A DNA stretch of 64,000 bases from Eledone cirrhosa (lineage: Eukaryota), in contig OZ024742.1 of the NCBI GenBank assembly GCA_964016885.1, positions 196,478,001-196,542,000 on the forward strand. Direction: 5' to 3'. Position numbers and translations under genes: made by a program. This document shows, piece by piece, positions 3,640 through 60,906 of the stretch. Numbering within the stretch: position 1 is the stretch's first letter; each line of letters begins with the position of its first letter. The notes beneath the pieces are model-generated. The model had not been told where the DNA came from. It did not search any database and worked only from the letters and a program-made list of their open reading frames with translations.

Positions 3640-4080
3640 GTAACAGGGGGACATATTGTCTGTATGCTTCAGCTTCAGCTTGTTCCTGTGGAGGGTCAGG
3701 TCTTCTGTATTACTGCGTGATGCCAGAGGTCACGGTCGTGTGTCATTGCCCTTGAGAGGTGCAATTGGGTAAGGTTGGCTTTTATCACCTCATCCCAAAT
3801 CTTCTTGGGTCTCCCCCACTCCACGGCTTCCATCGACTTCTAGTGCTCTGCACCTTTTTATGCAGCTGTCATCCTTCATACACATCACATGTCCATACCA
3901 GCGTAACCTCCTATCCTGCACACATCATTTGATTCTTCTTATGCTCAGTCTCTCTCTCAATTTGTTTATACTTTGCCATTTGCATATATTACTATTACAC
4001 ATCCATCGGAGAATGCAAGCTTTGTTTCTTTCTAATCTACACAAGTCTTCTACAGACAGCGCCCAGGTTTCACTTCCATG
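3640..4080 (-). mobile_element. Older RTE 3' fragment, left part (split by the 4078-7249 insertion)
   Basis: Reverse complement of the RTE C-terminus from HGSETWA onward; roughly 85-90% identical to 6545-6960. Confidence 0.9.
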
Positions 4081-6948
4081 GGAAATGACGATGGGATGGG
4101 TGGTGTAGGTATACTATTAGCTGACAAGTGGGTAGATAAAGTAATCTCAGTGTACAGGGTAAATGCAAGAATCATTAAACTCAGACTAGTCCTGAATAAG
4201 ACAATTACCACAATAATATCAGCTTACGCACCCCAATCGGGGCTGCCAGACGAACTTAAGGATAGGTTTTACGAGTCCCTAATACACACTACTGCTCTAA
4301 CAGACGACAAGGACTTCCTAATCATTGCAGGAGATTTTAACGGACACGTAGGTAAACACTGCGACGGCTTCAATAGAGTACATGGAGGCCATGGAGTTGG
4401 CACAAGGAATGAGGAAGGATTCAGACTTCTAGAATTCTGCGACGCCAATGACATGTCGATATGTAACACAAACTTTAAAAAACCCGACAACCACCTGATC
4501 ACCTATAGATCAGGGGAGCACTCTAGTCAGTTAGATTTTATCCTCATCAGAGGACGTGACAGATGGACGGTCGTAAACACAAAAGCCTTCCCTAGTGAGG
4601 AATGTACATCCCAACATAGCTTAGTTGTCAGCGACCTCACGGTCAGAACTAGACGAGCCCTGAAACAGAGGCCAACCTGGAGAAGAAAGATCTGGAAGCT
4701 GAAAGTCCCCTCAACCAGTAACAGATTTAAAGATATTTTACTCAACGCCTACGACAGTAAAGAAGAACAGATAGAGACATTTAACGTAGAAGAGAACTGG
4801 GAGTTCCTAAAAAATAACTTACTAGAGGCGACGGATGAGGTTTGTGGCTGGAGTAAGACCTCAAGCAGGAGGAGAGTGACTTGGTGGTGGAACAATAAGG
4901 TAGATGAAGCAGTCAAGGCCAAGAGACAGGCATGGAAAGAATGGAAGAACGGGGGGAGCAGGGTACATTACATAGAGACCAAGAGGGAAGCTAGGCGACA
5001 AGTATACTTAGCTAGGAGGGAAGCAGAGGATAGAAAATTCAAGCATGTTTTACAACGTGAGGACCAGAAACAGGAGGTATTCAAGATTGCGAGGCAGTGT
5101 GTCAGAGATAGTTGTGATGTCATTGGAGAGAAGTGTATCCGGAATGATAAAGGTGAGCTTGCCCTCACAAGTGCTGAGAAGAAAGATGCATGGAAGAGTC
5201 ATTATGATAGATTACTAAATGAGGAGAATGCATGGGAAGAAGAGACCCTACCCCACGTAGACCCTATAGAGGGACCAGCAGTACAAGTCAGCGGCAGCGT
5301 AGTAAGTAAGGCAATCAGAGATATGAAGATAGGGAAGGCAACCGGTCCATCGGGTATAGCTGCCGAGATGCTGAAGGCATCTGGGTCTGTAGGTCACACT
5401 ATAACCACACGTATCGTTAACCAGGTAATACTAGAGGGGGCCATACCAAAAGATTGGTGCAGTAGCATCATTGTCAACTGCTACAAAGGTAAAGGCGATG
5501 CACTAGATAGAGGAAACTATAGAGGTATAAAGTTGATGGACCAGGTCATGAAAGTAACAGAAAGAGTTATAGCACAGTTGATTAGGGACCGGGTGAATAT
5601 AGACGAGATGCAATTTGGGTTTGTTCCAGGGAAAGGCACCACTGATGCGCTCTTCCTTGTGAGGCAATTACAGGAAAAGTACCTAGCTAAAAGTAAGCCA
5701 CTCTACTTGGCATTTGTCGACCTTGAGAAAGCCTTTGACAGAGTTCCACGTGCAGTAATCTGGTGGGCTCTTAGAAAACTAGGAGTAGATGAATGGCTTG
5801 TGAAAGCGGTACAAGCCATGTATAGGGGAGCAGTCAGCAAAGTTAGGATTGGCAATGAGTATAGCGAGGAATTTAGCGTACAGGTTGGGGTCCACCAGGG
5901 CTCTGTTCTTAGCCCTCTCCTGTTCATCATAGTCCTGCAGGCAATAACGGAGGAGTTTAAGACCGGATGCCCATGGGAACTCCTGTATGCTGATGACCTC
6001 GCACTCATAGCTGAATCTATGGTAGAACTAGAGAATAAATTCCAAACCTGGAAGCAGGGACTAGAGAGAAAGGGCCTCAAAGTCAACATGACAAAGACTA
6101 AGGTCCTTATAAGTAGACGAGAAAACAGAACCCAGATCCCCTCAGGGAAATGGCCTTGCTCAGTATGTAGGAAAGGTGTAGGTAGGAACTCCATTCTCTG
6201 CCCCAAATGCAAACAATGGGTACACAAGAGATGTAGCGGGATCTCAGGAAGCTTAATTAAGAATGTAGGATTCACATGCAGCAGCTGTGCTGAAACAGCA
6301 AGCAAACAGCCACAGGAAACAAGTACCACCAATCTCTGGGAGGGCCCTGTAGAAACAGTAGACAGCTTCTGCTACCTAGGTGACCGAATTAGCAACGGAG
6401 GTGGGTGCTCAGAAAGTACAATAACTAGGGTAAGAACGGGATGGAAGAAGTTTAGGGAACTACTACCACTGCTAGCTGCAAAAGGCTTCTCCCTCAGAAT
6501 GAAAGGCAGACTGTATGATGCGTGTATCCGAACAGCGATGTTGCATGGTAGTGAGACCTGGGCGCTGAAGGTGGAAGACTTACGTAGATTAGAGAGAAAC
6601 GAAGCCTGCATGCTCCGATGGATGTGTAACAGTAATATACGTGAACGACAAAGCACAAATGAATTGAGAGAGAGACTGAGCATAAGAGGAATCAAATGCT
6701 GCATGCAGGAGAGGCGGTTACGCTGGTATGGACATGTGATGCGTATGAAGGATGACAGCTGCATAAAAAGGTGCAGAGCACTAGAAGTTGATGGAAACCG
6801 CGGAGTGGGGAGACCCAAGATGACTTGGGATGAGGTGATAAAAGCCGACCTTACCCAACTACACCTCTCAAAGTCAATGACACACGACCGTGACTTCTGG
6901 CGTCACGCAGTAATACAGGGTACCCGACCTCCCATGGGTACATGCTGA
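4078..6948 (+). CDS. RTE polyprotein: AP endonuclease + reverse transcriptase + PHD-like zinc finger (956 aa, N-terminus of APE missing)
   Basis: APE motifs SAYAPQ, GDFNGH, LDFIL, SQH; RT motifs NYRGIKL, QFGF, FVDLEKAFD, GVHQGSVLSPLLF, YADD, FCYLG; RTE C-terminus RRLRWYGHV and GRPKMTW. Confidence 0.95.
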   Translation: MGNDDGMGGVGILLADKWVDKVISVYRVNARIIKLRLVLNKTITTIISAYAPQSGLPDELKDRFYESLIHTTALTDDKDFLIIAGDFNGHVGKHCDGFNRVHGGHGVGTRNEEGFRLLEFCDANDMSICNTNFKKPDNHLITYRSGEHSSQLDFILIRGRDRWTVVNTKAFPSEECTSQHSLVVSDLTVRTRRALKQRPTWRRKIWKLKVPSTSNRFKDILLNAYDSKEEQIETFNVEENWEFLKNNLLEATDEVCGWSKTSSRRRVTWWWNNKVDEAVKAKRQAWKEWKNGGSRVHYIETKREARRQVYLARREAEDRKFKHVLQREDQKQEVFKIARQCVRDSCDVIGEKCIRNDKGELALTSAEKKDAWKSHYDRLLNEENAWEEETLPHVDPIEGPAVQVSGSVVSKAIRDMKIGKATGPSGIAAEMLKASGSVGHTITTRIVNQVILEGAIPKDWCSSIIVNCYKGKGDALDRGNYRGIKLMDQVMKVTERVIAQLIRDRVNIDEMQFGFVPGKGTTDALFLVRQLQEKYLAKSKPLYLAFVDLEKAFDRVPRAVIWWALRKLGVDEWLVKAVQAMYRGAVSKVRIGNEYSEEFSVQVGVHQGSVLSPLLFIIVLQAITEEFKTGCPWELLYADDLALIAESMVELENKFQTWKQGLERKGLKVNMTKTKVLISRRENRTQIPSGKWPCSVCRKGVGRNSILCPKCKQWVHKRCSGISGSLIKNVGFTCSSCAETASKQPQETSTTNLWEGPVETVDSFCYLGDRISNGGGCSESTITRVRTGWKKFRELLPLLAAKGFSLRMKGRLYDACIRTAMLHGSETWALKVEDLRRLERNEACMLRWMCNSNIRERQSTNELRERLSIRGIKCCMQERRLRWYGHVMRMKDDSCIKRCRALEVDGNRGVGRPKMTWDEVIKADLTQLHLSKSMTHDRDFWRHAVIQGTRPPMGTC

Positions 6949-12227: not shown

Positions 12228-13685
12228 ATGTATAGGGGTATAAAACTGATGGATCAGGTTATGAAAGTGGCAGAAAGGATATTAGCACAACTAATTAGAG
12301 AAAGGGTCAAACTAGATGAGATGCAGTTTGGTTTTGTGCCTGGCAAGAGTACAACAGATGCCCTCTTCTTGGTGAGACAATTGCAAGAGAGGTTCTTAGA
12401 GAAAAATTAGCCACTATACTTAGCCTTTGTTGACCTAGAGAAGGCCTTTGATAGGGTACCCCGATCTGTCATCTGGTGGTCCCTAAGGAAACTAGGTGTT
12501 GAGGAATGGCTTGTGAGGACAGTGCAAACTTTGTACAGAGGTACTGTCAGTAAAGTCAGGGTAAGAATGGAGTTTAGTGAGGAATTCCAGATACAAGTAG
12601 GAGTACATCAGGGTTCGGTCCTCAGCCCGCTCTTGTTCATTATAGTCCTCCAAGCCATAACAGAGAGTTTAAGACTGGCTGTCCATGGGAGCTTCTCTAT
12701 GCTGACGATCTGGTTCTTATAGCAGAATCAGTAGAGGAGCTAGGGAATAAATTCTGGCTATGGACACAGCAATTGGAAGCAAGAGGACTGAGAGTGAACC
12801 TAGCTAAGACAAAAGTGTTGATAAGTAGAAAAGAGGACAAAACTCTGATTCTGTCAGGGAAATGGCCATGTTCGATATGCAGAAAAGGAACTGGCATAAA
12901 TTCTATAAAATGCACATAATGCAGATCCTGAGTATACAAGAGATGTAGCGGGATAGCAGGCAAACTAACAGGTAGGGAGAAATATGTATGCAGTAGATGT
13001 ACAGGGAAATTAGACAGTAGAAGTCGCATTGATAGACACATTTTTCAAATGCAGGAGGGTGCTATAGAAGTGGTGGATAGCTTCCGGTACCTAGGAGATC
13101 AGATTAGCATGGGAGGAGGGTGTTCTGAGGTCATAGTATCTAGAATAAGGATGGGTTGGAAGAAATTTAGGGAGCTGCTTCCTCTGCTGACGAAGAAGGG
13201 TTTCTCCCTGCGTACGAAAGGCCGGTTGTATGATGCCCGTGTGAGGAGCGCGATGCTGCATGGTAGTGAGACATGGGCAGCAACTGCAGAGGATATGCGA
13301 TGGCTGGAGAGAAATGAGGCAAGCATGCTCCGTTGGATGTGCAGTGTAAATGTGCGTGAATGACCCAGCATGAATGTGTTGAGAAGGATAGAATGTAGTG
13401 TACGGGAGAGGAGACTGAGGAGGTATGGACATGTGATGTGTATGGAGGATGACCGATGGGTGAAGAAGTGCCAGGAAATGCCAGTTGAAGGAAGATGTGG
13501 TAGAGGTAGACCACGAAAAACATGGACAGAGGTGGTGAGAACAGACCTCAGATCGTTGAAGCTCACGGTGGAGATGACAAAGGACAGTGACAAGTGGAGA
13601 GGTGCTGTGCTGAATAAGACCCGTCCCACCCTTGCGAGCAGGGAAGAGCGGACGTAAAATGATGATGATGATGATGATGATGATG
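12228..13685 (+). mobile_element. 5'-truncated degenerate RTE LINE (divergent subfamily)
   Basis: RT motifs with stops and frameshifts; (GAT)n tail; 5' end abuts (TA)n. Confidence 0.9.
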
Positions 13686-24850: not shown

Positions 24851-25287
24851 GTTAAAAGAATAGAGGTGTAACACACAAGTTATTATATATTGGTAAATGG
24901 AATAGAAAATGCTGACAAATTGTTCACAGTTGAAAAATGGTTTAATTAGGAATAAAAGAGTATTAGTGATTGTATGGGTTAGTATTCAGTTGTGGTTTTA
25001 AGTTTTTAAGTTTTTACCGGTTGCGCATTTCAAAATGCTTTTCAAAAATAATTTTGAGATAGAGTGTCCGTGCTGTTTGCTCAGATCAGAGCAAACAGCA
25101 CGGACACTCTATCTCAAAATTATTTTTGAAAAGCATTTTGAAATGCGCAACCGGTAAAAACTTAAAAACTTAAAACCACAACTGAATACTAACCCATACA
25201 ATCACTAATACTCTTTTATTCCTAATTAAACCCTTTTTCAACTGTGAACAATTTGTCAGCATTTTCTATTCCGTTTACCAATATATA
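24850..25287. repeat. Fold-back palindrome P1 (about 199-bp arms, 6-nt centre, about 35-nt extension on the left)
   Basis: 24884-25082 is the reverse complement of 25089-25287 with 2 mismatches; flanked by (TA)n. Confidence 0.95.
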
Positions 25288-40167: not shown

Positions 40168-43100
40168 AAGTCAGTCAACGCGATCAGTCGCACATTTTGG
40201 CGTCAGAGACAATTCATTAAATTTAAGATGAATACTATCTCCGAGAGTAATGCCACAACTACCAGTCATGTTGAATAACTGGTTATTCTTCTAACTATAT
40301 CCACGGAAGATACCTTTTATTCGAATTCGTAGAGATATACGACTAAATACATAGTTCATTTTACAAGGATTTGCTACAAACAGCATGGCTGACCACAACA
40401 TCAACAACAACATCAGTGGAATACCGAAGAAAAACGAGAAAGGTAAACAAAATTTATTCAGTTGTAGCTACAGAAGAAACCAAAATTATAAATCGCATTT
40501 CTCTTGGAGTTGTGAACTTAATGATGATTTGTTTAATTGTTATAGAATGGCAAAAAACAATCCCTCCATTGGCTATATGAACAGAATGAAGCTACACTGG
40601 GACGAAATGCACCCAGAGCTAAATCACTTCACAGCGAAACAATTATGCCAACAAGCGACGTTTGTTGAACGTAAAAATAAGATAAATATTATTAATTGTA
40701 AGTCCCCCAGAACAAACATGGAATCAACAACACGTGCTACAGGTCGCCATGCTACTAGACTTCCTAGCAGCCAGGTCGAACAGTGCCTCGAAACAACTAT
40801 GCCTGTAAGAAATTTGACACCACGTGTACCATCTAAGTCTACCTCGAATGCTGGGGAAAACACTATCGATAATAATAATAATCGAAGAAATTTGACACCA
40901 CGTGTACCATCCGAGTCTACCTCGACTATTGTGGAAAATTCTATCGATAATGATAATCAAAAGTATAAACAATTGAAAATTTCCCTCAACGAAATCTTCC
41001 AGAGAGAAATTAATTCATGTATAAATATCTCTCTGGCTGAACGTATTAAAACAACAATATTTTATAATAAAAAAAACAAATAATTGTTTCTACTTTTGGC
41101 ACAAGGCCAGCCATTACCTAGTACATTACTGGTACTTTATTTTATCGACCCCGTAAGGATGAAAGGCAAAGTGAACCTCGGCGGGATTTGAACTCAGACC
41201 GTAAAGGGACGTAACTATGCTGGAAAGCAGGACGTCCGACTCTCTACTGATACTGCCAATCCACAATGAAATATTACGTGTTATTGAAGAAATAGGGGAT
41301 GAATATTTACGACGGATAAAAACCCCAACATTTTGGCAAATCAACGCCTGTTTATATGCCTTAGTAACGACAGTGAAGCATTATCTTGGTGATAGCAGAG
41401 ATATTAACAAGAACAAAACACCACCAAAAATGCCATCATATATAACTAAAATAGAAAAAAAGATTGCTGACCTACGAAAAACCATAGGATATGTGACAAT
41501 GCTCCTTACATGCAAACAAATACAAAAAAACTTCACTCCTCACCAACAAAGAGTGACAAATAAAATAGAGACGATGTTTGGTGACAGTAGAACCAGAACT
41601 CTTCAATATAAGCTGATCACCCTCAAACAAGAATTGAGAGCTGTTAGCGAAAAACGCCGATACCCGAAGAAGGTAGATGAAAGAAAAGTGCTTAATAAAA
41701 GATTCAGAGAAAACCAAACATCAGTCTATAGAGATATGAAGGGCAAAATAATAAGTGACACTGAGGCCCCATCCCAGAAAGATATAGATTCCTTTTGGAG
41801 AAAAATATGGGATGATAGGAAGAATTTCAACCAAGATGCAGTGTGGCTAAAAGAAATCCAAAAGAACTATTTCTCCTACACTACAACAAAAACATACGAA
41901 ATAAGTGAGACTGTGATAGGAAAACTCCAAGATAAGAAAACACCAGGAAGAGACCTGATTGTCGGCTACTGGTACAAAAAAATGATATTCTATCGGAGAT
42001 ATCTTACCAACCTCTACCAACAAGTTCTTAAGGGAGATACGCTTATACCAGAATGGTTGACATTAGCACAAACATTACTGGTCCCCAAGAACAAAGACAC
42101 CCACTTGGCAAAAAACTACCGCCCCATTGCATGCCAGAACCTGATGTATCAGATGTATACAGCCTGCCTGAACCTATTCCTCCAAGATCAGTGTGAAAAT
42201 AATGACATCATCACAGATGAACAAGCAGCTGGAAAGAAAGGGGTTTGGGGATGTGCTGAACAACTCTTAATCAACAAAACTGCGATGTTGGAGATGCGAC
42301 AACTTAGGGGGAATATCGTTACAGTCTGGCTGGACTACAGGAAAGCTTTCGATTCTGTTCCCCACTCTTGGATGATAAAGGCCCTCCGACTTGCTAAAGT
42401 CCCAGACATTATTATCAGAGCCATAGAGAAGCTGTCTTCTTCTTGGGCTATTATCCTAAAGTTAAAGACAGAGAAGGAAACTCTATTTTCATTGGTAAAA
42501 TAAAATATTACAGGCGTATATTTCAGAGAGACAGTCTCTCTGTTATATTATTCATCTTGTCATTAATACCCCCTTGTCCTTTCTGCTCAAGAAATGTGAA
42601 GGATACATCATTGTCTCACAGGAGAATAGAAATACGAACCTAATCCATAATTTCTTTGTGGATGATCTGAAACTCTATGCCAAGAACATGGATGGGATGA
42701 AGAAAATTCTTGACCTGGTTACAACATTCTCAAAGGATATAAGAATGGAGTTTGGCCAAGATAAATGCTCATATATGACTGTAAAGCGGGAAAAAACAAC
42801 AACCCAATCTAGCAAAATTTGTATCAATGGCCTAACTGTTTCACCAATATCTGATGAGGACTGCTACAGATACCTGGGGATAGATGAGAATATATCCTAT
42901 AATGGTATTTGTAATAAGGAATGCGTAACCAGGGAATACTACACCCGATTAAGAAAGATTTGGTCATCGGAACTGTCTGCGCAAAACAAAATAGTGGCTC
43001 ACAATGTGTTTTCTGTGCCTGTCCTAACACCAACTTTTGGAATACTCATTAGACGATAGACGAAATCCAAGCAATTGATGTTAGAACTCGAAAAATACTA

Positions 43101-44420
43101 AACAATACCGGAAACTTCCACATCAACAGTGACATAGACCGCCTTTACTTGAAACGTAAGCAGGGAGGCAGAGGCCTAATATCAGTCCAGACAGCATTTG
43201 AATGTCGCATCATATCTCTCCGACAACATCTACGAACCTCAAAGCGTAGGAGCCTGTTTCTCGAGCAAGTCTATCTGCATGAAACAGATAAGATCATGAG
43301 AGTTGGGAAGGAACTCCTCGAGAGATATTCCCTGTGTGATAATCAAAAACTCACACCCAAGTCGCTCGGCAGTATCGCAGTGAATCCATGGATGAAAAAC
43401 CGCATGCTTATCAGCAAAACATCATGCATGTATATTGCCAGGAAGCGCCAGAGTGAGAGTAATATAGATAAGGAAAGTAGTCTATCTTGGACCAACAACC
43501 ACTATATTGGCTCCCACTTTGAAGGATACGCTTTTGCAATCCAAGAACAGGAAATCAACACGATTCACAAAAGAGATAGGGCTGCAGGAAAATACCTAGA
43601 TGTGATAACAAGTGCAGACTCTGCAGAATTAACATCGAAGATGTCACCCATGTATTAAGCCGCTGTCCAAAGATGTCATCGCGGTACTATCTACATATGA
43701 GGCATGATATAGTGGCCAAAACACTGCACGATGCAATTCGTAAAAAAGAGAGCCCCGATAATAAACACATTAAAAGCTACTGCAATGTGGAAGACATACA
43801 TATGCATAATATGAAAGAGTACTGGTGGAATGTTAAAGTAAAAACGCCAATAAAATGCAGGCAGAACAGACCAGATATTATGATATGGGACAGGAAAAAG
43901 ATGGCACGCACAGTAATGGAAATTAGCTGCCCAGCAGATGCCAATATAATATCAAAGATTAGCGAAAAGGAGAATATTTATGCAGAACTTATGCTCCACC
44001 CTGATTATACCTTCAGATTTATGCCTGTGATTATTGAGGTACTGGGTTATGTTAGTAACTGCCTCAATACAAATCTTGAGAAGCTTCACAGGAACAGAAA
44101 GAACACAGCTAGCTAGGAAATTACAAGTACAACCCATTAATGGAACAGTAAAAATATGTAAAACGTGCTAAACATTTTGCATCTAATACTGTATATACAC
44201 ATGTACAGACACTAAGCCTATACACATGCACACATACAACTCAGAACATACACATCCACACATACAATAACATCCATATCTACACATGCAGACATGCATA
44301 AATATCTACCTAGTTGATGTTGTGTAAATTCCAACGAGAGAGTCTTGTGTCTATGTTAGAAACCGACTCTCTCCCTCTATTGGCAAACATTTGTGAAATT
44401 ATAAACCCAGAAGTACATAC
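40168..44420 (+). mobile_element. Near-full-length degenerate R4/Dong-clade non-LTR retrotransposon (RT + CCHC + restriction-like endonuclease)
   Basis: NYRPIAC, WLDYRKAFDSVPH, IFQRDSLS, FVDD, YRYLG, GGRGL, CRLC..H..C, RHD, RPD..E..K motifs; no APE; flanked by (CATA)n on both sides; many frameshifts. Confidence 0.88.
41083..41262 (-). mobile_element. SINE inserted in the R4-type ORF
   Basis: Reverse complement of the 61933-62117 family. Confidence 0.85.
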
Positions 44421-46462: not shown

Positions 46463-46847
46463 TGAGCCCTCTTTGGAGTTTAGTCTTCACATTTATTATT
46501 ACAATATAGTAATAATAAATGTGAAGACTAAACTCCAAAGAGGGCTCAATAAGGATTATATTATATATATATAAAATATATATATAATATAAAAAAAAAC
46601 ATAGAACAAATATTCAATAAATGTACAGATTAAAGTTTAAGCAAAGAATCGCTGTTATCATCCTTTTACGGGAACTTCTGAAAGATTTCTGAAACAAATT
46701 GAGTTTCAGAAGATTCCGTAAAAGGGTGAAAGCAGCGATTCTTTGCTTAAACTTTAATCTGTACAAATAATAAATATTTGCTCTATGGGTTTTATATATA
46801 TAATCCTTATCAAGTCCTCTTCAGATTTTAGTCTTCATAATTATTAT

Positions 46848-46855
<8 letters not shown>
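46463..46855. repeat. Compound fold-back P5
   Basis: Perfect 40-bp hairpin 46463-46548 overlapping an older imperfect inverted repeat (about 46505-46683 and 46700-46855). Confidence 0.8.
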
Positions 46856-46912
<57 letters not shown>

Positions 46913-46916
<4 letters not shown>

Positions 46917-47683
46917 TAGGTACACGTACATACACATATGTATACAGACGTAAAGTAGTATGTATATATATATATGCATACATGCACACATATATATATA
47001 TGCACGTATGGATTCACCGAACATTTATTATAATGCTCGGTGTGTTTGTAAACAAACATCCCGTATTAAGCCGTAGTGTCTAGCAACCATCGTTGCTCGT
47101 TTGTTCAACACTGACAAAGGAACGCTGTACCAGTTTCAGGCTTATTAGCTATCGTCAGCAACGTATACCTTCCTGCCAGACTGTTGAACGTATATACTTA
47201 CCTTATGCATATTAACGGCTGAGTAGCCCAATTTGCATATCGAGTGGGTTAATCGGCCGGGTGCACCGATAACGATAAACGGAAAAAATGAAACGAAATT
47301 TCATTTCCCACTCTTAGTACGGCTGTTACTTAAAAATAAGTAGGTACACGTACATACACATATGTATACAGACGTACAGTAGTATGTATGTATATATATA
47401 TATATATATATACATACATGCACACATATATATATGCACGTATGGATTCACCGAACATTTATTATAATGCTCGGTGTGTTTGTAAACAAACATCCCGTAT
47501 TAAGCCGTAGTGTCTAGCAACCATCGTTGCTCATTTTACAGCGTTCCTTTGACAGTGTTGAATAAACGAGCAACGATGGTTGCTAGACACTACGGCTTAA
47601 TACGGTATGTTTGTTTACAAACACACCGAGCATTATAATAAATGTTCGGTGAATCCATACGTGCATATATATATGTGTGCATG

Positions 47684-47735
<52 letters not shown>

Positions 47736-47843
47736 CTACTGTACGTCTGTATACATATGTGTATGGACGTGTACCTACTTATATTTAAGTAACAGCCGTA
47801 CTAAGAGTGGGAAATGAAATTTCGTTTCATTTTTTCCGTTTAT
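46913..47843. mobile_element. HHR-delimited ~430-nt non-coding unit: partial tandem on the minus strand plus an inverted copy (palindrome P4)
   Basis: 47275-47532 is the reverse complement of 47568-47843; 46913-47092 directly repeats 47336-47532; HHR at 47122-47164. Confidence 0.85.
47122..47164 (-). ncRNA. Minimal type I hammerhead ribozyme (stem II slightly degenerate)
   Basis: ACGUUG-CUGACGA-uaGCU aaua AGCcu-GAAA-C ug G-UA/CAGCGU. Confidence 0.7.
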
Positions 47844-47847
47844 ATAT

Positions 47848-47971
<124 letters not shown>

Positions 47972-48312
47972 ATAAACGGAAAAAATGAAACGAAATTTCT
48001 TTTATATATATATATATATATATAAATTATGTCCATAGAATCATTTGATAAGATATATACACCATTTCCTCCCCCAATTAGCATAATCAACCACACAAAA
48101 ACCAATTAAACCAGGCTATAAGATTAAATGGCACCTATGAAGAAATAATAGATAAATAAACGACAGCCATCTATTCGCGATCAACAGCTATGGAATATTT
48201 ACCCAGCATTTCAATAGCACGTGGAAATCGATTAAATATATCGTCAACCATACACAATTAGGTATAAAATTAAAGTTAGAAGAAAAAATGCATATACACA
48301 TACCAGGATTAC

Positions 48313-51344: not shown

Positions 51345-54300
51345 AATGGCTTCTCACTCTGTTCTGCCAACGTACACGGGCGACGTAAGGCTATGGTTCG
51401 CCCAACTCGAAGCATTTTTAGAGGCGAACAGAGTTGACGAGGCACTACAACGTCTTCTGGTGCAATTCCGCCGGCATTTCTCCCAGCTATTAAGGACCTG
51501 GTGTTAGAGACACCCACAGACTCGACGTACACATCTCTGAAGGCTGAAATACTCAGCCGGACAGAACAGTCTGCAGAAAAAAGGTTTAGAGCTTTGGTCC
51601 ATCTGGAGCATATAGGGGATGGCACCCCATCGAACCTCCTAAGGCGAATGAAGGACCTAACGGAGGAGTCGGTAGCGGAAACTGCCCTGCTGAAGCAGTT
51701 GTTCTTCTCGCGCCTGCCGACCAACGTACAGGCAATTTTGGCCCCTATGAGGGATACAAGTACGGTGGATCAGCTTGCCGCCTCTGCGGACAAAGTTTTC
51801 GAGGTGACGAGTGCCGGAGGCAGCGAACCCCTCGCCGCTGCTCACCACCCAGCTCGGGCCACACTCGGCCATGCCATCTACGCGGCAGCGCCAATAGACA
51901 GCTCAACCATTATGGCGATGCATTCAGGAACTCACCATAGAGCTCCACAAGATGAAGGCCTTGTGTGGTGCCCGTCCGCGCCCCCGCAGTCGCGGGAGAT
52001 CGCAAAGTTTTAGACGTCGTTCAAAATCACTAGCTTCATCTTTATGCTGGTACCACGAGCGATTTGCTGAGAGCGCGAACTACTGCGTGCAACCTTGCTC
52101 GTTTCATAAGGCGGGAAGCGCCTAAGAGGTCCGCTGATGGAGACAGTTGACCTCAACATAAAGCCACCAAACCGCCATTTCTTCATTAAGGACCTAATGT
52201 CGGGAAGAGGTTTCCTCGTGGATACAGGAGCCTCCTGTAGTACTTGGCCGGTCTATTGCCTGAAAGATACCCCCATAGAGTCATCTGTTACGCTGCAGGC
52301 AGTTAACAACTCATCTATAAAGACGTACGGGCAAATCTCGCTTCCTCTCAAATTCCTAAATCTTCGTAGGGATTTTAAGTTGATTTTTACGGTTGCCGAT
52401 TTTCCATACTCCATCTTAGGAACGAATTTCCTACACAACTTCTTTTTGTCTGTGGACGTCCGTGGCCAACGCCTGGTGGATAACATCACCGGTTTTTCAA
52501 TTCATGTCCAGGAAGCCAATGCTCCAATAGTCAGCCCCATATTCTTCATCACTGCCGCTGGAGACGCCTACCATTCGTTGCTGGGTTCTTTCCCGGAGCT
52601 CACGGATGGAAATTTTTGAGTCACTGAGCCAACACACTCGACCGCACATTTCGTTTCCACCACTGGTGCTCCAGTGTTTTCGTGTCCACGCCGCTTACCG
52701 GTGGAAAAATTAAAGGCAGCACGGTCCGAGTTCGACCATATGCTGCAGCTGGGCATTATTCGCCCATCTACGAGTCCTTGGGCTTCACCGTTACACATGG
52801 TGCCCAAGACTTCCGGCGACTGGAGACCCACTGGGCATTATAGGAGGTTAAATGCCATGACCGTCCCGGATAGGTATCCCATTCCCCATCTCCAGGATTT
52901 TGCATCTTCACTGCAGGGGTGTAAGATTTTTTTAAAGCTAGATTTAGTGCGAGCCTACCACCAACTTCCGGTCAGGAAGGAGGATATTCCGAAAACGGCG
53001 ATTACAACCTCTTTCGGATCCTTCGAATTTTTTACCATGCCTTTCGGACTCAGGAACGCTGCTAGCACTTTTCAGCAGTTCATAGACGAGGTCACTCGTA
53101 GTCTGGATTTCGTTTATGCTTACATAAACGATATTCTCGTCGCTAGTTCCTCTCCAGAAGAGTATATGCGCCACATGCATATCTTATTTCGGCGACTTCA
53201 GGATTACTGCGTTCGTGTGGATCCAGCAAAGTGTGTTTTCGGTTCCACTTCTCTAAATTTTTTAGGCCACCTCATCGACGCCGAAGGTATTAGGCCGCTC
53301 CCTCAGCGAGTTCAAGCCATACAGGAGTTACCTCCGCCTACTACACTTCACCAGTTGCGTTACTTCTTAGGCCTAATCAATTTCTATAGGCGTTTCGTTC
53401 CTCATTGTGCTAATTTGCTATCTTCCCTTACTGACATTTAAAAAAATCGTCGTAAGAAGAATGAGGATATTTCCTTGACACAAGGACAGCTTCAAGACTT
53501 CCAGACTGCCAAGACAGCACTCGCTAGTTCATCTTTGCTAGCCCACCGGGTACCAGAGGCCAAGCTTTCGCTTTGTGTTGATGCATCTGATACCGCTGTG
53601 GGAGCAGTTTTACAGCAGTCTTACGCTGAAAACCAACAACCTTTGGAATTGTTCTCGAGGAAGCTGAAACCAGCAGAAACGCGTTATAGCACGTTTAGGC
53701 GGGAATTATTAGCCATATATCTGTCAGTGAAACATTTCTCTCATATTCTTGAGGGGAGAAATTTTACAGTTTTTACCGACCACAAACCGTTGACCTTCGC
53801 TTTGAGGGATAAAGCCGACAGATATTCGTCCAGAGAGACAAGGCACCTGGACTACGTTTCACAATTTACAAACGATATCCAGCACATTGCTGGCTCGCAT
53901 AACATAGCTGCAGACGCATTGTCACGTTTGCCAATCAGCTCCATCTCGTCATCCCAGGAGATCGACTTAGGTCGTTTAGCTGCAGACCAACCTGCACTCC
54001 AATCGTTGGACACTCTTTCTGCTGAATTTGCGACTTGCATTTTCAAATATCTGCCCTTGTCCACCACCGATGTGATGTATCTACGGATTCACCACGACCA
54101 CTTGTTCCTGAGACTCACCGTCGAATTGTGTTTCTGGCTTTGCACAACATTTCTCACCCAGGATCTGCTGCCACAGTAAAGCTCATAACAGCCAGATTCT
54201 TCTGGCCAAATATGAGGCGCGACATTGCTGCTTGGTGCCGTTCCTGCATCGCTTGCCAGAAATCGAAAATCCATAGACACATCCGGACTCCACTTGGTAC

Positions 54301-55250
54301 TTTCAGTACTCCTGATGCTCGGTTTCAGCACATACACATTGACCTCGTTGGACATTGGCCATTCAGCAGTGGATATTAATACATATTGACCTGTGTCGAT
54401 CATTTTTCGCGATGGCCTGAAGCCATCCCCTTACAAGATATGACTGCTGAGACTGTAGCACGTGCCCTGGTATCAGGGTGGATTACCCGCTTTGGGGTAC
54501 CAACTACAGTCACCACAGACCGTGGTAGACAATTCGAGTCCCATCTCTTCTCTGAGCTCACAAAGATAATTGGAGCTCAACGGATTCGGACCACAGCCTA
54601 TCATCCTGCTTCAAACGGAATGGTGGAACGATTCCACCGCCAATTAAAGGCCGCTCTTCGCGTCTATCCAGACTCTCAACGTTGGAGCGAGTACCTTTCT
54701 ATTGTGTTGTTAGGAATTCGGTCATCAATAAAGGAGGATCTGGGGGTTCTCCCCGGCCGAATTACTTTACGGTGTTCCTCTAGCGTTGCCTGGGCAAATG
54801 CTTGCCCCTGTTGATCTTGCTTTCCAAGATCCGCTTTCCTACGTATTCCGCCTGGGTTCTTATTTTCAGGACCTGCCGCAGATGGATACGAGGAAACAAA
54901 CTGTAAAACCTGCGGTCCCGAGGGATATTGCCTCGTGGACCCATGTGTTCGTAAGGAACGATGCTGTGAGACCACCCCTCACACAACCATACTCTGGACC
55001 CTACTGTGTATTAGCACGTACTGACAAACATTTCACTGTAGACATTAAGGGGTCCAGAGAGACAATTTCGGTGGATTGACTAAAAAGAGCACACAATGAC
55101 GCTCATACACCCGAGCCACAAATATCCCAATCTTTCTCTCTTGTGCATACACCTGCTCCTTCTGCCCCACCTTCATCTACATACAAAACCACGATCCGTT
55201 CCGGTCGGAGATTCCACTGGCCCAAAATGTTCTGCCAAACTGTTTTCATG
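51345..55250 (+). pseudogene. gag-pol (disrupted)
   Basis: Gag ..LFFSRLPTNVQAIL; PR FLVDTGAS; [36 protein letters not shown]; RH VDASD..TDHKPL; IN HHCC, HIDLVG, TDRGRQF, NGMVER, and a GPY motif. Confidence 0.92.
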
Positions 55251-57316: not shown

Positions 57317-57849
57317 TAAACAAATAATGAATAAACAATTCCTTATATTAAACAAAAAAAGTTCATTATTTAACGATCGTTTCTAGGGTATATATGTGTT
57401 ATAATTGGTATGCATATTCAACAGATCTATGTACAAAATTATACAAAATTATACAAATTATCAAGATTAAATATACATACCTAACACATATATACGCCGT
57501 CTTCAGAAATAAATTATTTCTGAAGACGGCGTATATATGTGTTAGGTATGTATATTTAATCTTGATAATTTGTATAATTTTGTATAATTTTGTACATAGA
57601 TCTGTTGAATATGCATACCAATTATAACACATATATACCCTAGAAACGATCGTTAAATAATGAACTTTTTTTGTTTAATATAAGGAATTGTTTATTCATT
57701 ATTTGTTTAATATTTTATCTTGACTCTGTATACCGTTTATCTTTCACCGAAAGTGGATTTTCATTACATCTCTTCTTTCCATGATATCCGGAATACATTG
57801 AGTTCTTCATACGGATTGGACACTACCGTAAACTCTTGGTAGATTTATC

Positions 57850-57852
<3 letters not shown>
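57308..57852. repeat. Fold-back palindrome P3 (205-bp arms, 1-nt centre at 57513) plus about 130-nt extension
   Basis: 57308-57718 is self-complementary; the ORF track gives mirror ORFs; (TA)n lies on both sides. Confidence 0.95.
57513..57661 (+). ncRNA. Type I hammerhead ribozyme with ~115-nt stem-loop II (mirror at 57366-57512)
   Basis: AUUAUUU-CUGAAGA-c GGcGUAUAUAUGUGUUA...UAACACAUAUAUACcCU a-GAAA-C gauc G-UU/AAAUAAU. Confidence 0.75.
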
Positions 57853-57883
<31 letters not shown>

Positions 57884-57884
<1 letters not shown>

Positions 57885-60800
57885 TGGCTTAGAGCCACAG
57901 AGAGGGCCAGTGGATGATGGATCAGCTGTCTCTGAGACAAATATAAAGAGTGCAGTTTTGTCCTGCAGAAGAGCCATCAAAATGGGCACTTTGAATGTGA
58001 GGACTATTCGAACGCTGGAGAAGAGAGAGGAGTTGGGACATCTGTTCGAGGAGAGTGGTATACAGATACTTGCGATCCAAGAACACAGGATTCTACACGA
58101 TGAGCCCGTGAGGAGTGTGATGATCGGGAGGAAGAGCCAGCTCATCACTACATCGGCAGTGAAGAACACAACAAATGCTGCAGTAGGAGGAGTGGGTTTT
58201 GTGTTCAGTGCAAAAACCAATCTGTTGGTGAGGGAAATAATGCCTATCTCCCCGCGAGTGTTGAGGGGAACCTTCAATGGAAACCCAAGACTGACAGTCA
58301 TCTCAGCCTATAGTCCAACCGAGGGGGACAGTGATGTGAATGCGGAGGAGTTCCATGAGGAGGTGTGTAGAGCTGTCAACACCACTCAGGCACACAATAT
58401 CCTGCTTGTTTTGGGGGACTTCAATGCACATCTGAGTAAGGAGGGCAGTGAAGATCCTTGCTGGTACTTCCATAACAACACCAACCGAAATGGAAGACTA
58501 CTGAGAGACACCCTGCTGGAGGCGAACTTGATGGCGACCAACCTAAGGTTTAGGAAGAATCCGGGGAAGATGTGGACCTACATCTCAGATATGCACCTGT
58601 CCAAGTCCCAGATTGATTTCATTCTGGTGAGGAAAAAGTGGCGGAATAATGTTCTGAACACGGAACCATACAGCTATTTCAGTACACTGGGTAGTGACCA
58701 CCGGCTTGTTATGAGTGAGGTCCGCGTGAGCTTAAGAAAGAGCAAGGCTCAGCCCCGGAGAAATCTATGACTGGGGAGCTTTCAAGGAAGATGATAAGCT
58801 ACAGGAGAGGTTCACAGTGGAAGTGAGAAATAGTTTTAGTGCTCTGTGTGGAGAGTCAGAGGAGAGAGAGATTGGATGGACTGAGGAGAGTGTGACGAGG
58901 AGGTACGGGCACTTCACCAATGCAGTGGCAGTGGCGAAAGCAAGTGAAACCCTGGTGCCGAGGAAAAAGAACAAAGGGAAGCACGTCAGCTCTGCAAACC
59001 CAAAAGTGTGTGCAGCCAGAGAACACCTGAAAGCTGCCAGGGACCAATTCTATGCTGATCCTACGGAGGAGAGGATGGAGACTGTGGAGATGATGAGGGA
59101 AGAGCTCTGTACCGCTTACATTGAGGTCAGAGAGGAGGCACTGATAGAGAAGATCAGAAGTGTGGAGAGAGCGGTTGACAGATCTGGATGTAGGGAGAGC
59201 TGGATGATCATCAACGAGATCACAGGGAGGAAGAAAAGGTGTTCGAGTCAGATCCAGGGAACGGGGCCCGAGGATAGGAAGAGGAAATGGCTAGACCATT
59301 TTAGGACCCTACTAGGAGTGCCACCCTCCACAGCCCAGAGCACTGGGGAGATCAGGCGGCTGTTTGAGGAACTGGATGTTGAGACAGAGCCCTTCACCAG
59401 AGAGGAGCTTCAGAGAGCCAAGAAGAAGATCAAGGAGGGCAAGGCTCATGGAGAAGATGGAGTGGCATCAGAGATGATGAAGAGGTGTGATTTTGATGAT
59501 ATTATCCTGGGGTTCTGTAACGGGGCACTGGAGAAAGGAGTTGCCCCGAATCAGTGGAGGATCAGTAACATCGTCCCAGTGCCAAAGAAGGGAGATCTCT
59601 CTAACACCAACAACTACCGGGGGATCTCACTGACGTCACTTGTGGCAAAGACCCTCAACAGGATGATTCTTAACAGGATCCAGCCTGAGATGGAGAAGAA
59701 GCTCAGGGACAACCAGAACGGCTTCAGAGAGGGTAGATCAACCACCAGTCACATCCTGATGCTGAGGAGGATATTAGAGGGAGCTAGAGCAAAGTGCCTT
59801 CCTGCGGTCATGGTTTTCATTGACTTTAGGAAGGCCTTTGATTCTGTGGACCGTTACTGCCTGATGAAGATCTTACAGGCTTATGGAATCCCCAAGAGGA
59901 TAGTGGACCTGATATCACTGCTCTACACCAACACCAAAGCCCAAGTCATTACACCTGATGGGATGACAGAATTCTTTGAGATACTGGCTGGAGTGCTCCA
60001 GGGAGATACATTGGCTCCCTACCTTTTTATCATCGTAGTGGACTATTGTATGCGCCTTGCACTGGAGAAACACCAGGACTCTGGCTTTACTGTAGCACCG
60101 GCTCAGAGCAGAAGAGTTGGGGCGAAAAAGGTATCAGATGCTGAATTTGCCGACGACATAGTTTTGGTGACAAATACAGTGAAGGAGGCAGAGGATTTGA
60201 TGCGGGAGGTTGAGACTGTGTCGATGAGTGTGGGGCTGAGAATGAATGAGACTAAAACAAAATATCTGGTAGAGAATGTTGAGAAGCCAGAGGGGATCAC
60301 TAATGTAGGCGGGAAGCCGCTGGAATTGGTTGAGGACTTCCTGTATTTGGGAGCAAAGATTGGGAATACGGAAGATGATGTGGTTGAGAGGAAGAGCAAG
60401 GCCTGGGCGGCGTGTCACAGCTTGAGATCGGTGTGGAAGTCGGACCTTCGTAGAGACCTGAAAATCCGCCTCTTCATTGCTGTAGTGGAGTTTGTGCTGC
60501 TGTATGGGTCTGAGACTTGGACACTGACCAAGAGACTCACTCAGATGGTGGATGGGTGCTACACGAGAATGCTGAGGATGGCTCTGAACATTAATCAGTA
60601 TACACTGAGGATGAAAAACTCAGAGCTGTATGGGAGCATCCCAAAAGTCAGCTCAAAAGTGACACAGAGGAGACTGAGGTTGGCTGGACATGCTCACCGA
60701 CATCCAGAGTTGACATTGCACTCAGTGCTCCTTTGGGAGCCCCTACATGGACACACTAGAAGAGGAAGACCAAGGTTAACATATGTTGATGCCCTAAGGA

Positions 60801-60906
60801 CAGACACTGGTCTGTTGGAGATGCAGGATATGGCAGCGATAATGAGGGACAGAGACCGCTGGAGAGAACTCGTCCATGGATCTCGGGAATTTTACCCGCC
60901 TTAGAT
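57884..60906 (+). mobile_element. Second-family RTE-like LINE, nearly intact (one frameshift near 58765)
   Basis: APE GTLNVRT, IQEHR, GDFNAH, SDH (57910-58770); RT NYRGISL, FIDFRKAFD, GVLQGD, FADD, YLG and C-terminal RGRPR (58817-60904); (TA)n on both sides. Confidence 0.92.

Follow-up and report, generated by a model that had tools for sequence, protein, structure and literature searches.

Animal retrozymes accumulate as circular RNAs (Cervera and de la Pena 2020, PMC7229834), and the available parts of two publications propose that Penelope-like elements reverse transcribe such circles (PMC7229834; bioRxiv 10.64898/2026.07.22.740005, Li, Clavereau, Pollet 2026). According to the available text on the Penelope-like protein of the anole, reverse transcription in vitro begins at two internal sites that correspond to the genomic tail and both strands are extended; unprocessed RNA is the main substrate and ribozyme cleavage is not needed (Frangieh et al. 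2024, PMC11167929). Endonuclease-positive Penelope-like elements are further described, in the portions of the literature consulted, by 5' truncation, partial tandems, an inverted 5'-truncated copy, a tail at one end, (TA)n targets and two internal starts of reverse transcription (Craig et al. 2021, PMC8557442; Arkhipova et al. 2013, PMC3846280; PMC11167929), all of which recur in the family described here. As far as these partial sources tell, it is not settled how animal retrozymes re-enter DNA, nor whether Penelope-type insertions are shaped by cleavage of the ribozyme, and our literature searches, incomplete in coverage, found no published mapping of retrozyme insertion ends.

Here we analysed a window of 64,000 nucleotides from Eledone cirrhosa (contig OZ024742.1) and the repeat family to which one of its insertions belongs. 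Its sequence places the element among the animal non-LTR retrozymes, as a new member with Penelope-like insertion marks. It shares with described members a short tandem unit that is non-coding and carries a single type I hammerhead, a GC content of 38% and thousands of copies; the U-U at the base of stem II resembles axolotl HHR_Amex2 and the palindromic stem III loop resembles HHR_Amex1. It differs in that its insertion ends are mapped here, whereas the published parts propose a reverse transcription route without end maps; conversely, circles and cleavage were shown for the described retrozymes, while the present family is known from DNA alone.

A two-armed hammerhead repeat between (TA)n tracts

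The insertion in the window is a single two-armed copy of a hammerhead repeat of about 422 nt, its arms lying head to head between (TA)n tracts. The left tract (46851..46913) is the insertion target. The long arm (46912..47536, minus strand; 625 nt, about 1.45 units) starts at unit position 26, passes one ribozyme and has its 3' end at a fixed site, site A (unit position 214-216). The short arm (47537..47843, plus strand; 307 nt) starts 2 nt before the predicted ribozyme cut and ends at a second site, site B (unit position 275), so that unit positions 26 and 421 face each other at the head-to-head junction (47536..47537). The 61-nt stretch between sites A and B (47783..47843, plus strand) occurs at this outer end only and is, by analogy, the equivalent of the Penelope 'tail'. 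Beyond the right (TA)n tract (47844..47971) lies a 32-nt stub of the same element (47972..48003, minus strand), which ends at site B and is likely a separate, very short insertion.

As the preliminary description had reported, the minus strand passes through the hammerhead and then repeats the unit, here from 47536 to 46912 with a period of 434, and the unit has no ORF: in a natural tandem the longest ATG frames are 51 aa (sense) and 49 aa (antisense). A cut-to-cut monomer of about 430 nt, also placed at this locus, is not found, as the locus contains only one complete ribozyme. A reading frame with reverse transcriptase (RT) and GIY-YIG domains is absent from the unit, and we do not class the element as an autonomous Penelope-like element.

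The type I hammerhead core was located by its motif and pairing at 47122..47164 on the minus strand, which bears out the earlier call of a ribozyme from 47164 to 47122 with a GUA cleavage triplet. Its layout is a 6-bp stem I, CUGACGA, a U-U followed by a 4-bp stem II, GAAA, a 2-bp stem III and the GUA triplet; in the window copy, stem II is 3 bp because of a private mismatch at 47139. An extended stem I flanking the core (47103..47189, minus strand) adds 18 further pairs in the model, one of which is changed on both sides between subfamilies. Self-cleavage is predicted after 47128 (47127..47128, minus strand), a site that the long arm reads through.

The core and its three stems are present in the units listed. 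Among 15 chosen variants, pairing is kept in 97.8% of cells and 2 of 30 pairs, one in stem I, are changed on both sides between subfamilies, representing few independent events; this preservation of pairing through double changes suggests that the ribozyme is under selection. Searching Rfam with the whole window at the gathering score returned nothing, and relaxing the threshold to E values up to 5 for 46900-48000 gave 83 weak matches, mostly microRNA hairpins, without a hammerhead; the basis of the ribozyme call is therefore the core motif, together with the way its pairing changes from one subfamily to another. Folded freely, the short core did not yield the hammerhead (z of 0.2-0.5 for two short stretches and -1.8 for 101 nt). 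Stem III is 2 bp long with a near-palindromic loop in most copies, and the available text of one paper reports this form, a short stem III with a palindromic loop, to be active as dimers (PMC7229834). In one study, 8 of 9 predicted retrozymes showed no cleavage.

Upstream of the ribozyme, at 47231..47238 (minus strand), lies what we take to be an octamer-like motif, putatively a promoter part. Other hammerhead-like cores in the window belong to other families and lie at 13187(+), 25561(-)/25680(+), 29716(-), 33646(-), 34953(+) and 61029(-); a core of the 25561/25680 type was also found after a GIY-YIG frame at locus L126. Between 46460 and 46860 we observed another nested palindromic element, which ends in the same left TA tract as the retrozyme copy and has arms near 46465-46545 and 46620-46770 and a repeat at 46813-46856. 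A similar stretch follows the TA tract of locus L245, and the element probably represents another TA-targeting family; a motif scan of it gave no hammerhead core. Further retroelement frames were seen whose motifs point to a LINE-like element at 4036-6948, a non-LTR element in broken form at 40355-44116, an equally broken gypsy-like pol at 51438-55079 and presumably a second LINE at 57832-60904.

In the 3.0-Gb assembly, a 24-base probe taken after the cut has 8,856 exact matches and a probe for a sister subfamily 10,681. Natural units measure 416-466 nt (n = 41), their mode of 422 falling in the range of about 150-450 bp for retrozyme tandems, and have a GC content of about 0.38 (0.34-0.39, 6 units). 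The unit contains an internal, self-complementary microsatellite hairpin. The unit is present, with variants, in contigs of four sequencing runs, and two runs labelled as other organisms hold diverged pieces of it in 1 and 4 contig records. Long arrays, of 7 and 10 units, also occur.

Position of 5' ends relative to the predicted cut

The preliminary description had the short arm start 0-2 nt from the cut and took this as a sign that the cDNA was made from hammerhead-cleaved RNA. The closeness stands: homology of the plus arm begins at 47537 and takes in the final two nucleotides of the GUA triplet. This is 2 nt before the cut, however, and not a start at the cut itself; neither of the two nucleotides, 47537 included, is part of the minus arm, and the plus arm holds two extra bases of uncut RNA.

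To locate 5' ends across the family, arms were traced upstream from their 3' ends by anchor chaining, beginning with the first 100 of 3,946 site-B ends and 34 of 1,532 site-A ends. Three duplicates were removed from these 134 arms, leaving 131; for a later set, 8 non-inverted arms with broken chains were removed (leaving 123) and 50 partner arms were added, giving 173. Since all arms lie in the first 86 Mb of a single contig and were reached through exact-match ends, the sample leans to young copies. Among the 131 arms, ends occurred at 0.0026 per nt, and two lay within positions -2 to +1 of the cut against 0.85 expected. In 146 passes over the cut by the 173 arms, no end fell at +1 and two fell at -1; these 2 ends in -2 to +1 compare with 1.17 expected (P = 0.33; 1.2 expected within 3 nt). 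The cut was read through by 106 of the 173 arms, and two cuts were read through by 18 of 131, which upholds the earlier argument from the longer-than-unit copy to a circular or tandem template. Drop-off of the cDNA was roughly constant at 2-4 per kb, and 3 of 123 arms exceeded 1.2 kb. The sole pile-up (12 ends against 3.5 expected) was at unit positions 121-127, at the edge of the microsatellite hairpin, where mapping is ambiguous. No pile-up was seen in the 131-arm sample in a possible transcript-start zone upstream of the ribozyme (positions 337-378; 6 ends against 10.1 expected).

Genome-wide junction probes that demand four non-family bases directly upstream gave 41 matches at the cut, 72 at +17 and 109 at -28, with denominators about equal in the sample (125:119:121); since the probes admit different TA phases, this comparison of the cut with its controls is a rough one. 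We estimate that such probes miss about half of the true junctions, that of the window included. When 30 of the cut-site loci were fetched, 21 proved to be true free 5' ends; the other 9 were no more than small indels within an otherwise intact ribozyme. Nine of the 21 free ends have TA-rich flanks; in a hand count, 10 of the remaining 12 keep the RNA's own A at position -1, a base that no cleaved template could have provided. A P value computed for this A (29 of 31) was discarded, as the probe admits one TA-tract phase only.

Synthesis on ribozyme-cleaved linear RNA, with run-off at the cut, might explain the start of the short arm and the free ends among the fetched loci, including one at locus L006 exactly at +1, and a small cleaved fraction is possible. 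Yet neither the sample nor the genome-wide probes revealed an excess over background at the cut, and most of the free ends set apart from TA-rich flanks carry the A. Moreover, a cleaved linear monomer primed at A or B yields at most 214 or 275 nt and therefore cannot be the template of the 106 of 173 arms that are longer. We give this explanation very little credence, less than any other weighed here.

The cut is thus not favoured as a starting point, and the ends near it mostly look copied from continuous RNA. The start of the window arm at -2 looks like a chance member of a set of scattered 5' ends. The plot of 5' ends against the cut that the preliminary description proposed thus gives scatter without excess at the cut, contrary to its view that a near-cut start tells of the mechanism. 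In so large a family, a single copy starting at the ribozyme cut is weak evidence. What had been put forward as the best mechanistic evidence has to give way to the 3' ends, where, unremarked in the preliminary description, the mechanistic signal lies.

Two fixed 3' ends and a probable common template

Arms of the family end at unit position 214-216 (site A) or 275 (site B), 61 nt apart and directly adjoining (TA)n; exact matches to such ends number 1,532 for site A with TA and 3,946 for site B with TA. An inverted, head-to-head partner is present for 84 of 131 arms. After removal of 8 double-counted pairs and 2 that were cut by the limits of the fetched stretch, 74 partner ends were scored, of which 50 pair A with B, 1 pairs A with A, none pairs B with B and 23 have no assignment. 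Site A is therefore joined with site B in 50 of the 51 assignable pairs, a rule that the window copy obeys with A at its left and B at its right outer end. The 74 inversion junctions are distinct, with one recurrent, and the overlap at them is mostly 1-5 nt.

In non-inverted arms, TA lies directly at the 5' side in 11 of 39 cases against a background of 6%, so that splitting of the target is shown for a minority; this is consistent with a pre-existing (TA)n target in part of the cases. The (TA)n targets would mask any target-site duplication, which in animal non-LTR retrozymes exceeds 4 bp where it occurs. The Penelope-type insertion marks found are 5' truncation with partial tandems, an inverted 5'-truncated copy and a tail at one end only. 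The family departs from the Penelope-like elements of the consulted literature in that its unit lacks an ORF and its tail is 61 nt long, as opposed to 30-40 nt there.

We also compared the copies within loci. At 13 common polymorphic sites, tandem units of a locus agree in 499 of 534 comparisons and inverted arms in 549 of 600, against 58% between loci. At least two discordant sites were found in 12 of 60 inverted and 6 of 52 tandem loci. Rare variants are shared by tandem units of a locus in 112 of 509 cases and by inverted arms in 37 of 455, against 46 of 20,138 between loci, large arrays weighing more in these counts; the three overlapping copies of the window share one such variant at unit position 207. 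In the 35 loci with both, divergence of tandem and inverted copies does not differ. Within a locus, arms or units diverge by about 3-4%, compared with 4.6% between loci, which implies that most differences arose after insertion and makes this a modest test of the template. The arms of one insertion mostly share one template.

A bias of A>G over T>C on the ribozyme strand was considered as a possible scar of RNA editing and rejected as weak and filter-dependent. Variants common to all copies of a locus gave 14 A>G against 4 T>C, and single-copy sites 43 against 15; one-copy variants showed no excess (62 against 56), and with private variants only it faded (4 against 2 and 16 against 11). At locus L003, three A>G changes inside 7 nt are common to both inverted arms, possibly an editing scar copied into both.

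Tandems and palindromes could also have formed at the DNA level after insertion of a single unit, by unequal crossing-over and fold-back repair. Later amplification does occur, as shown by the segmental duplicates L106 and L143 and by the 10-unit array at L141, where variants alternate in a two-unit pattern that suggests a dimer template or later duplication. Such an origin leaves unexplained the partial units with fixed outer ends at A and B, as well as the pairing of A with B and its counterpart in an autonomous family (below), and we regard it as highly improbable.

Autonomous Penelope-like families and a model of insertion

Scanning the fetched retrozyme loci detected GIY-YIG fragments, one of which belongs to the first of two autonomous families recognized in the genome. 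This first family has many intact 784-aa frames with RT and GIY-YIG domains and a CX4CxxC motif, by which, compared with the published description, it is of Neptune/Nematis type. Its ends adjoin (TA)n at either of two sites separated by about 40 nt, and in all 15 scorable head-to-head pairs a long end is combined with a short one (2 pairs were unscorable). The second has 777-aa frames and likewise two ends. Apart from U-rich ends, the retrozyme unit has no sequence match to either of these Neptune-type families, the two with which the pseudo-LTR homology of a Penelope-mobilised element was sought; this is a further difference from Penelope-like elements, and neither family is therefore named as the helper. 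A 9-base word common to a priming site and one autonomous family was dismissed, as it is lost in the sister subfamily.

Both families, represented by loci L240-L247 and L262-L263, are abundant and apparently young, with an upstream frame and an overlapping RT-GIY-YIG frame. A motif scan of their own terminal regions found no canonical hammerhead. Short and long 3' end pieces of the 784-aa family lie in the window near 25242(+), 62834(+) and 24929(-), and at locus L246 a retrozyme unit of the sister subfamily carries a full autonomous element within its internal TA run.

We propose, with a probability of roughly 0.6, that the insertion was written by a Penelope-type RT from RNA that has no fixed 5' end and most likely is a ligated circle. 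Transcription of a copy longer than one unit would come first, and two ribozymes would excise a monomer of about 422 nt, which would then be ligated; cutting would probably occur as a dimer, given the short and palindromic stem III. From the footprints, a Penelope-type RT/GIY-YIG protein may then cut both strands of the (TA)n, one DNA end priming at site B (275) and the other at site A (214-216). Each cDNA runs upstream and crosses the cut junction unstopped, a step visible in the DNA; finally, the two cDNA ends would be fused head to head, with an overlap of 1-5 nt in most cases. The ribozyme would thus make the template without setting the insertion ends, and a circle, having no 5' end, fits the lack of pile-ups. 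The fuller version, in which one small RNA circle is reverse transcribed by rolling circle from both strands of the (TA)n break, one strand always starting at A and the other at B, has in our judgement about an even chance.

The same enzyme and priming sites might instead have worked on linear RNA, long and uncut, transcribed from a tandem master array, with a ribozyme that is slow or silent at that stage and no need of a circle. Arrays of 7 and 10 units do occur, read-through and the missing ends at the cut fit equally well, the lack of pile-ups would also fit provided that the masters are a few long arrays, and the available text of the single in vitro study favours unprocessed tandem RNA (PMC11167929). 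On the other hand, a drop-off of 2-4 per kb without pile-ups, the microsatellite edge apart, needs several uncut units upstream of the priming site, in a sample where so few arms are longer than 1.2 kb; multi-unit arms occur in several haplotypes, parent junctions are not re-copied, and the double changes that keep stem pairing suggest a selected ribozyme. We consider an uncut template a possible but rather doubtful explanation. The choice between circle and multimer can now be tested directly, with a 422-nt RNA to look for and two candidate helper families with intact frames.

The new result is negative and comes from counts: the ribozyme cut is not where copies start. At the level of DNA, the answers to the questions raised at the outset are that the cut does not set the ends, that there are two internal priming sites and that the arms mostly derive from one template. 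The available text of the anole study gives start sites without a strand difference (PMC11167929), in contrast to the two differing ends in nearly all assignable pairs of the present family. If rolling-circle reverse transcription with strand-fixed starts is correct, this family would preserve, in thousands of copies, the natural record of a step that for retrozymes has hitherto been no more than a proposal, and would reveal an in vivo strand-to-site rule that is absent from the available parts of the published in vitro study (PMC11167929).
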